DNA of 43,671 nt, from NCBI GenBank assembly GCA_000165425.1, contig CT868185.1, positions 496,001 through 539,671 on the forward strand, given 5' to 3'. The stretch is from Paramecium tetraurelia (lineage: Eukaryota). A model generated the notes under the pieces. It saw only the letters and a program-made list of their open reading frames with translations, had not been told where the DNA came from and made no database searches. Below are positions 36,101 to 43,671 of this stretch, one piece after another (the stretch's first letter is position 1; every line of letters starts with the position of its first letter). The position numbers and the translations under genes were made by a program.

Positions 36101-36893
36101 AGACATGGACAAAAGGGAACTTGTGGAATGACTTATCGACAAGAAGATTTACCTTACACTCTTGTAGGCATTTCTCCAGATTTAACTATCAATCCACATT
36201 GTATTCCATCAAGAATGACCATAGGTAATATTATGTAATGAATGTAGGACATTTAATTGAATGTTTGTCATCAAAATTAGCTTCCATCAAGGGGTAGTTC
36301 AATGATGCTACACCATTTGCATAGATATTAGTAAATGATATTGCTAATGAATTGCATAAAGTTGGATGGCAAAAATGGGGTAATGAGGTTATGACGAATC
36401 CCTACACGGGTAATATGTTTTCAATTCCTATTTTTGTTGGACCTACTTATTATTAGAGATTAAGACATTTAGTAGATGATAAGATGTATGCAAGATCGAG
36501 AGGACCTGTAACTGGAATCACCAGATAACCTACTCATGGTAGGAGTAGAAAGGGAGGATTAAGATTCGGTGAAATGGAAAGAGATTGCATTATTTCACAT
36601 GGTAATATACATTAAATTTTATTATAGGCACTGCTAAATTTTTAAAGGAAAGGACATATGATGTATCAGATGCATTCAGAGTTCACGTTTGTTCTAAATG
36701 TGGAATGTTTGCTGTTGCTAATTTGGAAAATCAAGAATTCTACTGCAATTTATGCAAAAATCAAAATAATCAAAATAAAATTTATTAAGTTCAAATGCCA
36801 TATGCAGCAAAGACCCTAATTTAAGAGCTGATTTCAATGAATATTGCTCCGAGATTGAAATTTGATTAATCGAAAATGAAACATGAAATTTGA
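33174..36893 (+). CDS. RPB2: DNA-directed RNA polymerase II second-largest subunit, divergent
   Basis: [96 protein letters not shown]-terminal CSKC..CNLC zinc site. Introns 33436-33461, 36225-36247, 36602-36627. TGA 36891-36893. Confidence 0.97.
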
Positions 36894-36921: not shown

Positions 36922-39332
36922 TCAATTATGTTTTAGTAGTTGAAATATTTAATTAACATTTATAGGCTTTTATAGATACCCATCAAATAATGATAACTAA
37001 GATATTTCAGTTTTAGAATGAGCTGAGCATGCAATGATTTGTGTATTCACTCGCTCTCTAATCATAGATACAGCCTAATAACCATTAATGATTGGCATTT
37101 CAATATCCATAAGAATATAATCATATGTAGAATGTAGATTACATCCATTATAAGCATCAATCTTTGCGATTGCCTCCTTCACCGAGTATGCCTTAAAAAA
37201 TACTTTAAATTCAAAATGAATACTTTGTCAATTATCAAATCATATTGTTTCAGCTAACTCTCAACAATTGAAATGTTAAAAGGCATATCATCCACAATTA
37301 ATATTTGTACACATTTACATATACTAATATTACTCGGGGATTAAACCATTTCATTATACTTGCACATTTAAGGTATATTCCTAAGCTAATTGACAATCCC
37401 TTCGTTATCTTCATCATATAAGATACACACACTATCGTCAATATCCTTCTTATTGTGAATCTTAAATGAAAATGTCGATCCCTGGTTTTCCCCCTCTGAG
37501 TACACTTTGATCTCTTATCCTAATTTCTAAGCCAATATATTCGATATCATCAATCCTAAGCCAACTCCAGTAATATTATCACTATTCTCCAATCTACCAA
37601 AAGCTGTGAATAGTTTGTTTTATTCATTCTTAGGTATCCCTATCCCGGTATCCTTCACTTTTATTTCAACACAATCTTCGTCTAAATCTAAATAAATAGT
37701 AATTCCACCTGTTTCTGTAAACTTAATTGCATTTGATAACAAATTTAAAATTATTTGCTTAACTCTGTTTGGGTCTGTTGTTATCCACTGAGGAACGTGT
37801 TTCTATTATTCTAATTTCATATACAGTCCTTTTGAATTCGCCTATATTTTCATTATCTCAATGATTTCATTTATTAACTCAGTTATCTTAACTTATTAAA
37901 ATTATAAATTAAATTTCCCAGCTTTCAACTATGCTACATCCAAAAGATCATTTACTAAACTTAACAATGAAGAAGCCATAGATTTAATGGGTTACATTGA
38001 CTTTTCTAACTATTTTACACACTAATCGTTTGCGTTATGATTAGGGTTTAAAACAGTTCCAACGCTTTGAATGATTATATTTAAAGGTGTTTTGAATTCA
38101 TGTGCTACCTTATATAGCATTTGGGATTTATTAAAATTAGTTTTTTCTAGAGCGGCTATTTAATTCACATGAGTAATATCTCTTATTATAAATAAAATGA
38201 ACCCTTTATTATATGCGATGTAAGGTTTTAAAATTACTTAGAATATCTTTTGCATCTCTCCTTAGCATATGATGCTAATGTCCTAGAAGAACTTTAATGT
38301 TAATGAATTTAAATCACATTTAGGTTCTCTTTCCAACATTTGTTTAAAAATTTACTTAACTTCATCAATTATTATTGGAGATTATGATAAGTTATTATAA
38401 TGCTATTCATTATCTTGATTATTTTAATCCTCCTCTTCTTATTCTACAGAGCTCTTCAATTAGATGTAATCTGATTTTTCATTACCCAAGCTTTTTGATC
38501 TGGATTTCAACTTTTTATATAGAATCAAAAACAATTATTAATAATTATCTTATTCCGAATTTATTGCATTTCTTAGAGCTAACAATTTCTATTTTGCAAC
38601 ATCAGCAAAGGTTTCATTCATCAAACTTCTAAATGCTGCATTATTAAATTAAACATGAAGTTATTCATCTAATATTAAAACTCCATCAGGAAATGCAGTT
38701 AATAATTTTTTGAATAAATTGTATTCTGTTTGTTCAATTTCCTTGTTCGGTGATTATTAACCAATTTCCAAAACATGCTGTTTATATTATATTGAATCTC
38801 TTTTTGTTATCATGCTGAGAATTTCAGATTTTGAGGTTTCTTTTATTTTGGTTTTGTTTTTATAATGAGTGTAGAACAAATAAGCTGCACTTGTTGATAG
38901 GAATGCCAAAATCTCACAAATGGTGATGATATCAATTTTTAAACTAATCACTACAATACCAATTGCACTAATGAAACATGTCCACCATGATTTCATAGCC
39001 ATAATAATTGAACAACCAACAGCCACATACATTATTGGCGATTACAATAGCATAGCATTCAAAATCATTATTATTATTGTGCTCATATTTATGATTGAAA
39101 ATACCAAATTATTTTCTTTTAACAATCTAGTTGACAATATTCCTGCTGATAAACAAATCAGTGCAATTGAATAATCAGAACTACCTACAAAGCTCATATA
39201 TAACACATGATCTAATATTCCAAACACCAAAAGATTTCTCATTTTTTTAAACCTATTAAACTATAAAATAATAATCTTATAAACTTTATAATTAACATAT
39301 ATGATATCATTGTTGTATTTTTAATGTTTCAT
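36922..39332 (-). CDS. Membrane-bound hybrid histidine kinase (TM region, PAS-like, HisKA, HATPase_c, receiver)
   Basis: Hydrophobic N-terminus, AFPDGVLILD, H-box VAHEFKTPLN, N-box QIILNLLSNAIKFT, DTGIGI, GVGLGLMIS, receiver LIVDD..MDIEMP..KP. TGA 36922-36924. Start at 39332 or 39242 (same frame). Confidence 0.93.
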
Positions 39333-39449
39333 AATTTATATATCAAATTGTAAGACTTTTTTCCATTATAAGTGATAGGTTCATTTGTTATTGCATATTA
39401 GTTTTGATTAATATTATAAGTTTACCTTAAAGCCATAGATCATAATTTA

Positions 39450-41250
39450 ATACATCAGCGAAAGAATGTTAGAACTTAACTGTACCATAGAAAATTTCTC
39501 TGATGGAGTGGGAAAAATTGTAAAAATAGGCAATTCTATGGCAATTATCTCTGAAATATGGATTTAAACTTATTTAAGAAATTTAATATGCATATTAATA
39601 AAAAAAGAATATAAATCCAAGCAGCTCAACATGAGAAGGAATAATGTAACTTAAATTAAAAATTTGGAACTAACCAAAATGTAAATAATTCTAGTTTAGT
39701 GAAAGAAATTATAGAATTGAAATCATTTGAAAAATTATACCAGGATTGTTTATCCTATTAATTGCTTATGGATTAAGCCAATAAGAGGAGGATTGATTTG
39801 TCTTAGAATTCAAAAATCTACAGATTGAATCCTCATATTTTAATCATAAAATTAGTTTATTAAAAAAGCATTACAAATGTTATGGGTATCATATTGTTTA
39901 ATTATTGTTTATTAAATTTACATGAATGGAAGATAACAACATTAGTGTACTTAACTTTAAAATAAATATGGCTACTAAAAAGTATATGCTAAGTAATATT
40001 ATTTAATTTTTTGATCTTTTTTGACAGTTAGAGATATCATAAGCTTAGAAATTTATAGTAACACCTTATTTGCTATTCTCTTTAATTATGTCTTCTACAT
40101 TACATAAACTTAAATATGATAAAGATAGGCAATATCTAATAAATAATGGCTTTAAGGCATTTAGTTTAATAAAAATCTTTCGAATTGTTGACTGAGATGG
40201 ATTTTATTGATAAGGAGTAAATAATATTTCTAAGCTTTGAAAAGAATGCTAATGATTATGTGTAACCATCTATTTTTGATGAACATCAATTTCGAAAAAA
40301 TAAATACAAACTAAATCATTCTATTTTTGACAGCATCATTCTCTATAATTCTAATTGGAACAATAAAAGTCGTTAAATGCACGATATATTTATTTTAATA
40401 AAATAGATTGAGAAGAATAATATTTTTAGGATGAATAAAAATGAATGCTGGAATTCCAAAAATACATGAAAAAAGAGAAAGGTAATTTCAATTTTATAGG
40501 ATTGGTGGCTAGCGATGAAAAACTTATAAAAATGCAGAATATTAAGCAAAATGAATCATCGGAAGGTTTAGTAGCTCATTAATATTTAATATATGTACTA
40601 GCTAATCTCAAGACTGCTTTTATTAGCCTTTGGCATCTTAAAAGTGGAGAATTTGCAGTTCCTATTATAATTTAAATGTAGGATCTAAAAGGATAAAAAG
40701 TTAATTGCCCAATTAACAGTTATAACAATTCTATTAACTTTTGTATTATCTTATTATTATAGAAGCCTAATTTCAGGATTAAATGATAGAACAATAATCT
40801 TTTGGAATAATGACTATTCACAAATTTATATTTTAAGTAAAAGATTCTACGAAATAGGGATAATTACTCTTTTGGATGCAGTTTCAAGCAAATTTAGAAC
40901 ATACATGATTATTTAAAACTCTAAGGTGTAGAATCTAGAGTAGATTATAAGTTTGATGCATCTGAATTTTCTAAATATTGCTCTTTCAATTGATTAAGAT
41001 CGAACAGCAAACTCAAATCTTAATAAATTCAAATAAGCATCTAAGATTGTTTGGCTTAATCAGATATAGAACTAATTATATATGATCTAATGGAAAAGGA
41101 GAACCACAAGATTTAACATCCTACCAAATTTACTAAGAAGGGCAATTATGATATTAAGGAAAAGATATTATACCTTAAATGGATGTAACTCCTTCCTTTT
41201 CATTCTCCTCAAATATTTATATCTTCAAACTTTTTTTTGTTTCTTAAAAA
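39450..41250 (+). pseudogene. Decayed WD40-repeat gene remnant
   Basis: Broken frames with TGA stops but WD-like fragments: VASDEKLIKMQNIK, LVAHQYLIYVL, ISLWHLKSGE, and SLISGLNDRTIIFWN in another frame (about 40765-40810). Boundaries approximate. Confidence 0.4.
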
Positions 41251-41987
41251 CAGAAAATAATTAAAAGCACTGACTTATAAAATTATCTAAAGGGGGGACA
41301 ATTTGAAACTTTTTGAATTAATAAAGTCTAAATTTTTAATCATAAATTCAATTATTTGAAATTATATAAGCTATAGATTGAAATGTTCTTATTAATATAA
41401 TGAAATAATATAAAATAATTGAAGATTTTCTAAAAAGAATTTACTTCCAAAAAGTAGAATTATTCTTTCCTAAATCCTTTAGAGTAAGAGTTGATAAAAT
41501 TCTTCGATTAATTATGTCACTTTATATCTATTATTCTAATTTATCCTTGCAGATATACTTGTTATTGTCTTGATGGGATAAAGGAATTCTTTCAATAAAG
41601 TACTAATAATCTTTTCTATAACGCAGTAGTGTAGGATGCCGACATTTGAGATTGGCTATTAATATCAAATATTTTAAATCAAAAGCCAGACGACAATATT
41701 TTTATGAAAAATATTTCATTCCCTAACCTCACAAATGAAATACCAATGATTGAAAACTATTCATAGGCTAATCTTGCAAAAGATGTTTGATGACTAATTA
41801 ATGTCTCATAACTTCGCTCCAATTGTTTAAATATAATATGAGTAATAAAGTTTTTAAATATTCATGAAAAAGTGGAAGGGTTTGGCTTATTCATAATAAA
41901 AATTAATAATTTTGATAATTTTTTTATTTCATAATTATTCACTCTTATTTTCTAAAATTAAATATATAAAGGCGGGTTTATAAAATT

Positions 41988-43603
41988 ATGCATCATCAAA
42001 AAAATGCTAATTGTGTCAGTTCTCACGCTGACAGAAAGAAGATGAAAGTGTGGATATTAACTACAATAAAAAGGGGTAGTTCAATTGACTTAAAATAAAG
42101 TAACAATTCAAATAAATCACATGCCATATAAACTTCAATTTCTAAGAAGGATATGAAATTAAGAAGAAGAAGTTTTTCTAATTCGATTTCTACTTATGAT
42201 TAAGATTCAAATTGGAAAGAGCAAAAGAACTAAAAAGATGGTTCAAATCAATTCTTTTATAAGCAGGAGAAAGTATAAAATGATAGTAATCAATCATCAT
42301 AAAACAATAAGAATGATCAGAATAATTATAATAATCAGAATGATCAGAATGATATTTATGAAAAAAGAAAAAATGAAGTAAATTTTCAATAATTTCATTA
42401 CAACTTTTAGTCTGATGTGCTATAATTGGAAGCCTTGTATTATTGGCTTTCAAGTTTTGGATTTCAACGATCTACTCCTTTTTAACTTCCCCCTCTTCTA
42501 AGCTACTATATATATACTTTGATTTTGTATAGAAATGATATGCAGGAACTATCTTTATAATTTTTAGAATCCTCTTTTAAGGATGAATATTACAACAAAT
42601 TAAGGGATATGTAAAGTTAGTATTTTCAATAACAACTTTAAAATTAAAGCATCTCCTAAGTTTTATTCCATGATGTTCCAAATCGAGTGTTTAATTACGA
42701 GTATATTTTTATACAGCATCTGAATAAAATTATTGCTAATATGAATTTAGATTATAACATTCTTTTGGATGACTTTTTTTTATACTTCAAATCTGTTCAG
42801 CCTTTAAAAGAATTAATATAGAAGCATCTTTAAGCGATACATATGTTTTCAGAAAAAGTAATATTGCATTCGGAAATATACGATTTGTCTTCAGATAAAA
42901 CGATGGATAACTAATTGATTTTAAACAACCAATAGGGAAATTTTTAGATAAATAATTTGTAGATTATATTTAGTTCCAGGAGGGGTTTGGCAAATAAGTA
43001 TAATCAGCTGAACCCATTATGTATTTTAATTAATATCGCTCTGAACCTCATAGCGAAAGGACAATGATTTTGTTTCTTTTAGCCGATATTTACCTAGATA
43101 AATCAATATTTAATAATTTACAAATTGATTTAATACATTATAACAAATTAGATAGCCTCTCCTAAATTCACTTGGAAATAACAAGTGAGAATAGATTTTG
43201 TAATAAATGTGTAGGTATGTTTTAGATGATTCCAGTTCAATTTCTTTGTGAAAAATGTAAACAAAAATTTAAATTGAATGTGGATAAAAGATCTTAATTT
43301 ATTATCACATCATAGTATTTATTGGATCCATAAGTATCTACAAAATAATAAAGATATTAAAGAATTTGGAACATAACAGACTCAAGAAAAATAAATTAAC
43401 AATAATAATAAAATTAAATAAAGAAGGAAAACATTTAAAGAAAAAATGAAAAAGAACTTCCCTATGATTATGAGTAGCCAAGTACTGAATAGTAAGAAAA
43501 CATTCATTGTTAACTAGTACAACAACAAGATTTATCATAAACAGACTCCAGCAAATCACTTTAGTAAGAAGATTTACAATAGGAATATTATAATTTGCTA
43601 TGA
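41988..43603 (+). CDS. Orphan protein with putative Zn-dependent deaminase-fold domain; reading frame switches near 42774-42782
   Basis: The ATG 41988 frame is open to TGA 43065. A second (-1) frame is open from 42773 to TGA 43601-43603 and encodes KSNIAFG...EPHSERTMILFLL...IHLEITSENRFCNKC. Confidence 0.5.
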
Positions 43604-43671
43604 AGAACAAGAACCCACTGGAACGGGCTAACAGGAGAACTTGGTGTCGAGTACGAGGACTCGTACTACCT

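Follow-up and report, generated by a model that had tools for sequence, protein, structure and literature searches.

A plausible deaminase-like domain in a Paramecium-restricted protein family, encoded by a gene at a contig end of Paramecium tetraurelia

Contig CT868185.1 of Paramecium tetraurelia (assembly GCA_000165425.1) carries on its forward strand, in a stretch of 43,671 nucleotides (positions 496,001 to 539,671, below called the window and counted from its first letter), the first part of a gene for a long uncharacterised protein. The central part of this protein is, on balance, rather more readily understood as a divergent deaminase-like domain of a Paramecium-restricted family than as anything else; this reading is plausible, and activity as well as substrate are putative. 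The domain was pointed out in a preliminary description made from the sequence alone, in which an HxE motif and a later CxxC were taken as the zinc-binding signature of the cytidine deaminase fold, and in which a toxin-like or an editing or defence enzyme, perhaps acquired from a bacterial endosymbiont, was considered.

Coding frame and protein family

Under the ciliate code (translation table 6), tblastn with three homologous proteins (P0002, P0003 and P0005) delimits a partial coding sequence at 41988..43622 on the plus strand, which comprises roughly 545 codons from the start of a gene of about 920, begins with the ATG at 41988 and contains no intron in this part. The homologs lie colinearly on the window, in frame 3 over 41988-~42790, in frame 2 over ~42800-43588 and once more in frame 3 over 43590-43622. 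The frame 41988-43622 is a true coding sequence. P0002 of P. octaurelia, the species with the nearest homolog of the gene (71% identity), matches the window frame with an E value of 2e-108, and seven full-length unnamed Paramecium proteins of 843-935 amino acids match at E 2e-109 to 1e-50.

A phmmer search of 1.84 billion representatives yielded 9 proteins, all of them full-length members or fragments of this family, and neither the full-length profile (A3) nor the profile of the domain (A5) brought up relatives beyond the known Paramecium proteins and their fragments. The domain profile was also compared with bacterial and archaeal genome contigs of 185,579 species and with metagenome contigs, which gave 101 and 519 pattern-matched stretches, respectively, none of them confirmed at the sensitivity used. 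Within the scope set by these sequence searches, the family is one of proteins of about 920 residues found only in Paramecium. The gene thus deserves the name of an orphan given to it in the preliminary description, and the suggested bacterial endosymbiont origin is not borne out, no relative having appeared in either contig collection at that sensitivity. All members carry the labels 'unnamed protein product' or 'Uncharacterized protein', and Pfam recognises no domain in any of eight members (8/8). Literature searches for the family with gene ids and with Paramecium plus deaminase terms gave nothing, the supplements of expression papers, with possible data on GSPATT00037985001, lying outside this search.

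Along the protein, a basic Ser-rich N-terminus is followed by a helical-looking conserved region, the domain, a Gln-rich linker and, beyond the window, a conserved C-terminal half. Nothing suggests the toxin that had been considered; the domain lies in the middle of the protein and no N-terminal hydrophobic signal-like stretch is visible by eye.

Conservation of the putative zinc site

The motifs lie in an open frame at 42773-43603 (plus strand) of 276 amino acids, in which 29 TAA or TAG codons are read as Gln. Translation of 42782-43330 (plus strand) with table 6 reproduces the peptide of the preliminary description, with HSE, CNKC and CEKC at the same coordinates as given there. Counting residues of the domain from 42812, H-S-E occupies residues 80-82 (43049..43057, plus strand) at the N-terminus of a predicted helix and would supply a zinc-ligand His and the catalytic Glu. 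The two putative Cys ligands belong to C-N-K-C, residues 130-133 (43199..43210, plus strand), which comes after a predicted strand and stands, once more, at the head of a predicted helix.

The conservation of these residues was followed through the Paramecium homologs: H80, E82, C130 and C133 are invariant in 8/8 rows of the family alignment A1. In all, HxE is present in 9 of the 10 sequences covering the site and the first CxxC in 9 of 9. The window row of the domain alignment A5 counts 193 residues, 66 of them invariant, and since the family sequences are close to each other the invariance of the four residues is modest evidence. Among the 183 table-6 open reading frames of at least 100 amino acids in the window (34,853 residues together), the pattern H.E.{20,60}C..C has two start positions, both in the frame of the target gene. 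From composition about 0.6 motif loci per window are expected by chance, that is, one in every window or two. Taken by itself the motif is therefore weak evidence, and it is homology that lifts it above chance, as judged from the sequences.

Predicted structure and fold

According to the AlphaFold model and the fold searches, the deaminase-like domain would cover about 170 residues (17-186; 42860..43369, plus strand). The AlphaFold2 model (m577231b788fa) was calculated for a 193-residue fragment of the window with an alignment of 14 rows and has a mean predicted local confidence (pLDDT) of 64.8 and a predicted TM-score (pTM) of 0.66. It starts with two strands (22-29 and 34-36), which three short helices follow, and goes on with the helices 80-94 and 98-108, a strand (116-124), the helices 131-137 and 142-153 and poorly modelled strands at its end. 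Helix 80-94 begins at HxE, and strand 116-124 precedes helix 131-137, which begins at CxxC; the helix-like stretch starting with HSE and the strand-like run before CNKC, as first noticed in the sequence, thus reappear in the model. A second model, with the upstream helix added, came out worse (pLDDT 58.4).

Among the structural neighbours of the models, 28 of 40 rows belong to the deaminase-like fold, and in both models the best neighbours are JAB/MPN chains. Iyer et al. (2011; PMC3239186) describe JAB proteins and deaminases as sharing the deaminase-like fold, with the metal similarly placed and with strands 4 and 5 making a hairpin in JAB and in the CDA clade. Foldseek reached an E value of 0.001 or less with no structure of the Protein Data Bank (PDB); its weak rows include a DYW domain at rank 8 (E 0.5) and DddB at rank 27. 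Structure rows of the ESM Atlas for residues 250-470 of P0002 include SNAD3, XOO_2897 and MafB19/dCMP deaminase clusters at a TM-score (TM) of about 0.3. The models point consistently, if weakly, to the deaminase-like fold class, the scores being low.

From these observations we infer the fold, for which the scores are weak, as well as zinc binding, catalysis and substrate. The central domain would belong, though divergent, to the deaminase-like (cytidine deaminase / JAB) fold and have an active site of the deaminase type. One zinc ion would be held by His80 together with both Cys of C130-x-x-C133, and Glu82 would activate a zinc-bound water for the hydrolytic deamination of cytosine or adenine, as a base of a nucleic acid or of a nucleotide. 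The domain would depart from the usual form in two helical insertions, the first lying between strand 2 and the helix that starts with HxE, the second between this helix and strand 3.

Comparison with known deaminases and related folds

The domain has in common with the classical cytidine deaminase, dCMP deaminase and TadA group (PF00383) the signature H-x-E ... C-x-x-C and the predicted helix and strand context. Resemblances are also found among toxin deaminases. By features of the ESM Atlas, in which scores below 0.9 serve as leads only and may merely echo the motif, residues 250-470 of P0002 come nearest to a ciliate cluster (0.85), followed by Toxin-deaminase PF14424 (0.81 and 0.80), OTT_1508_deam (0.80) and SsdA_C (0.77); the clusters of the PF14424 clade are hence the nearest named ones. 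In four sampled PF14424 sequences the strand start N-[ILMV]-[AG]-x-[AG]-x-[IV] resembles, by eye, NIAFGNI of the Paramecium family. The toxin clades with a C-terminal hairpin (BURPS668_1122 / PF14424, SCP1.201/DddA-like, YwqJ) share with the domain a metal motif with which helix 2 begins and a CxxC with which helix 3 begins. However, the toxin clade has DxE, whereas the Paramecium family has HxE, no Pro before the Cys and an extra helix that results in a spacing of 47-50 residues. The toxin domains moreover form the C-terminal tip of their proteins, in contrast to a domain internal to a long eukaryotic protein, and no bacterial relatives were found in the genome contigs at the sensitivity used. 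None of the eight members (8/8) reaches the cut-off of the PF14424 family model or gives a PF14424 row at E up to 1.

For a profile comparison, 4 usable sequences were available from 5 PF14424 matches above the cut-off in 401 sampled Pseudomonadota genomes; DYW (PF14432) had matches in 0 of these 401. Alignment of the domain alignment of the family with the 4-sequence PF14424 profile by hhalign gave P 0.028, centred on the strand and CxxC, a score reached by 1 of 200 column shuffles. The test is low-powered, as its control, PF14424 against TadA, gave just P 8.7e-4 over 18 columns.

A eukaryotic parallel is offered by the DYW domain of OTP86 (PDB 7o4f), where H892, S893, E894, C920 and C923 resemble H-S-E and CxxC of the Paramecium protein. 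We take the CxxC of OTP86 to be likewise without a Pro. A large insertion is described just before HxE of the DYW domain of OTP86 (PMC7611903). Other DYW features are missing in the Paramecium protein, namely the terminal DYW motif, the second zinc site, the PG-box gating domain, PPR repeats and a Pfam DYW_deaminase row; the first two are lacking because the domain is internal and a Gln-rich linker comes next. The metal motif of the JAMM proteins, which belong to the JAB/MPN group (Rpn11, CSN5, BRCC36, RadC), is E...H-x-H-x(7)-S-x-x-D. Neither a conserved HxH nor a conserved SxxD occurs in A5, and the residues conserved there are of the deaminase type.

Alternative interpretations

Several observations weigh against a deaminase. 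The spacing between E82 and the first Cys is 47-50 residues in all 9 sequences and does not match the classical signature, as about 20-35 residues separate the motifs in classical deaminase families; the DYW domain of OTP86, with 25 residues, is no closer. The long spacing would be accounted for by the second helical insertion (predicted helix 98-108). No Pro precedes the first Cys of CNKC, a caveat raised at the outset. The sole HxE exception, the divergent and truncated P. pentaurelia protein P0015 (265 amino acids), reads Pro-Ser-Glu, with Pro replacing His. P0015 retains Glu-Arg, and is an inactive paralog if it is not an artefact of the gene model. Confidence in the models is middling, with a pLDDT of only 49-68 for the last strands and the CxxC segment, and all structure scores lie below the value that is usual, by the standard of the tool itself, for the top row when a model has no match. 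At the level of sequence, no deaminase row is obtained at E up to 1 from Pfam with 8/8 members or from NCBIfam, PDB sequence profiles give 0 rows or, with A5, one chance row (proline dipeptidase, E 1.1), and phmmer finds no protein outside the family. The hhalign signal with PF14424 comes mostly from CxxC, the reversed profile scores 16.84 vs 19.55, and DxE of the toxins is aligned with the non-catalytic D92; the comparison with 79 TadA sequences is misaligned (P 0.11). The original deaminase interpretation thus stands with respect to the coding frame, the conserved motifs and their helix and strand context, and lacks a significant sequence or profile match.

The same observations may be read in other ways. 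The domain could possess a deaminase-like or MPN-like alpha/beta fold in which H, C and C hold a structural zinc, and serve not as a deaminase but as a scaffold, a nucleic-acid-binding module or a different type of hydrolase, for instance a JAB-like peptidase or nuclease. The rank of the JAB/MPN chains among the neighbours of both models, the missing profile link to deaminases, the unusual spacing and the absent Pro would all agree with this, and non-deamination hydrolytic activities within the fold are discussed by Iyer et al. (2011; PMC3239186). We nevertheless regard it as unlikely, as H80 is the only invariant His of the domain and the JAMM motif (E...HxH...SxxD) is absent, and as an invariant Glu two residues past the His is a catalytic feature of deaminases which a structural zinc does not need. 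It is a little less probable still that H, E, C and C are conserved for reasons other than a shared metal site, that is, that the sequences of the aurelia complex are simply too close, the true fold is a different one and the likeness to deaminases is a coincidence. Against this, the second CxxC and many neighbouring residues vary while these four are constant, two separate models and two search methods arrive at the same fold class, and the motifs are placed on helix and strand as in deaminases.

A small C4 zinc finger or zinc ribbon, formed by two CxxC pairs, had been named as a simpler reading. The second pair, C-E-K-C (residues 146-149; 43247..43258, plus strand), lies 13 residues from CNKC in the window sequence, and sub-threshold Pfam rows for HypA, DZR, DUF4428 and HNH_5 (E 0.06-0.13) appear with the window sequence. 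The alignment refutes this reading, which retains hardly any credibility: of the 7 rows of A5 only 1, that of the window, has the fourth Cys, the other six have C-x-x-F, and the Pfam rows recur in 0 of 7 homologs. Only the first Cys of the second CxxC is conserved, and it is not half of a zinc finger. An intron at 43021..43053 (plus strand, GTA..TAG, 33 nt), which would remove the His, had also been considered and is rejected. The stretch encodes aligned conserved residues, among them the invariant F72, E78, P79 and H80, and is spanned without gaps (0 gaps) and unspliced by one contig (contig 22 of the X19 run, 42990-43315), so that the His is retained.

A deaminase-like domain with conserved H, E, C and C accordingly stays the favoured reading of the central region, at the strength given above.

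Frame breaks and contig end

In the window as written, the gene is interrupted by three window-specific single bases on the plus strand. The one at 42793 and the one 17 nt after it, at 42810, shift the frame, and the third, at 43590, creates an apparent stop at 43601-43603. These bases split one gene over two frames, a further cause of its being hidden, besides the ciliate code, that the preliminary description had missed. All three are absent from contigs of two public runs (X17 and X19) of the same organism and from one study, of which, as of X18, it is only guessed that they are RNA. The colinear contigs cover 42147-43015 (X17), 42762-43315 (X19) and 43347-43622 (X17) and differ from the window, the three indels apart, by 0-2 substitutions per contig. 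When 42793 and 42810 are dropped, frame 3 is joined to frame 2 through a hexapeptide that, read by codon, is like the YF-LFS-QK-IE segment of the homologs, and past 43590 frame 3 reads IICYEEQEPTG, the same as in the homologs by tblastn. Each of the 16 runs that contain at least half of the sequence words contains just 0.87-0.89 of them, which also points to an assembly error; none of the runs listed is recorded as RNA.

In the last 49 bases (43623..43671, no strand assigned) the window leaves the natural course of the gene. After 43622 the X17 and X19 contigs diverge from the window and encode the next residues of the homologs, while 43623-43671 is GC-richer and includes an 8-nt perfect hairpin (43650-43657 / 43660-43667). 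The contig seems to end here in chimeric or adapter-like sequence. The frame breaks are most likely assembly errors rather than gene decay, since three indels stand against almost no substitutions, and this at the end of a contig. If such extra bases are typical of the assembly, other genes there may carry false frameshifts.

The alternative, that the window copy is a true, very recent pseudogene with real frameshifts at 42793, 42810 and 43590, and that the domain is a relic here and perhaps functional elsewhere, we hold to be improbable. The frames are indeed broken as written, and broken or truncated kin exist: P0013/P0014 and P0012 of P. tetraurelia are without the catalytic core, and two further proteins, P0010 and P0015, are truncated. 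The sole certain RNA run (X24) furthermore has no reads on 42306-43671, though it has just 12 on the whole 5.2 kb of 38500-43671, too few to judge expression of the domain. On the other side, none of the three bases is found in the contigs of the X17 and X19 runs, which are of the same organism and depart from the window by just 0-2 letters elsewhere, the encoded protein retains every invariant residue, and the 49 foreign bases fit a poor contig end. Of the 'fast-decaying region' proposed earlier, what remains is that broken copies of the family do occur in P. tetraurelia; for the window itself a sequence error is likelier.

P0014 and P0012 are neighbouring gene models on a contig of 3,027 bp, and P0013 is a near-copy of P0014 elsewhere. 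P0013/P0014 and P0012 correspond to the two ends of a family member that lacks the catalytic core, with P0012 partly off-frame over the ICYEEQEPTG region. The locus of P0014 and P0012 looks like a decaying paralog.

Transcription

Contigs guessed to be RNA cover 41923-43315 and 43347-43622 and not the intergenic flanks. The X24 reads at 41960-42305 have a mate orientation opposite to that of the reads on the minus-strand kinase gene; on this thin evidence, they fit a transcript of the plus strand. Upstream of the start codon, a contig of the X18 run omits 104 bases at 41684-41789 (ends GC..TT, side 25); its loose ends are at 41650 and 41813, and it is probably chimeric rather than evidence of an intron.

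Other regions of the protein and neighbouring genes

Upstream of the domain, the conserved N-terminal region of the protein (42336..42790, plus strand; alignments A1 and A3) is apparently helical, to judge from the pattern of its residues, and has no Pfam match. For part of the C-terminal half beyond the window (P0002 ~750-900), RadC and MPN-like clusters are among the nearest structures, with TM 0.22-0.26 by query and from a low-quality Atlas model, and the feature search of the ESM Atlas turned up nothing usable for the C-terminal half (540-925). The Atlas model hints very weakly at a possible second deaminase-like or MPN-like domain in this half. Two antisense open reading frames, 42016-42786 and 43305-43670 (both on the minus strand), are rejected as genes; they have no Pfam match, and homology assigns coding to the plus strand.

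The window consists of Paramecium nuclear DNA of the aurelia group and is AT-rich (GC 0.24-0.35). With table 11 it contains almost no long open reading frames (6 of at least 100 amino acids), and with table 6 as many as 51 frames of at least 200 amino acids. As TGA is the sole stop, a long frame is little evidence of a gene here. Clear eukaryotic genes under the ciliate code are those for Rpb2, a histidine kinase, an XPD-like helicase, a synaptojanin-like phosphatase and a cyclic-nucleotide-binding protein. Where the frame of Rpb2 changes, at 36225-36247, there is a 23-nt GTA..TAG mini-intron of a kind typical of Paramecium; a change of frame at another place in the window can therefore be due to a real intron. 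Upstream of the target gene, two adjoining table-6 open reading frames (304 + 267 amino acids) at 39555-41273 on the plus strand have no Pfam match and are partly covered, at 40318-40695 by contigs guessed to be RNA and at 40749-41267 by a small number of true RNA reads. The pair is probably another uncharacterised gene.

Implications for Paramecium and for deaminases

To our knowledge, new eukaryotic deaminase clades are few, and each of those so far (AID/APOBEC, DYW, ADAR/ADAT and toxin-derived) underlies an editing, immunity or conflict system. That the Paramecium protein is an active, lineage-specific nucleic-acid deaminase of an undescribed clade, which edits or mutates DNA or RNA in a ciliate-specific process, is a tentative proposal and in our estimation rather doubtful. 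If it were true, the process might be one of defence, directed against intracellular bacteria, viruses or transposons, or form part of germline-to-soma genome processing, and the long insert between helix 2 and strand 3 could give a new substrate or context specificity useful for base editing. Several deaminase clades have become base-editing tools.

Ciliates, Tetrahymena or Paramecium are not mentioned in the available part of the survey of Iyer et al. (2011; PMC3239186). Even if the domain should be inactive, it would still be an example of a deaminase-like fold that drifted while its metal motif was kept. Paramecium allows RNAi by feeding and is rich in genome rearrangement and endosymbiont biology, so that the deaminase hypothesis can be put to a direct test.
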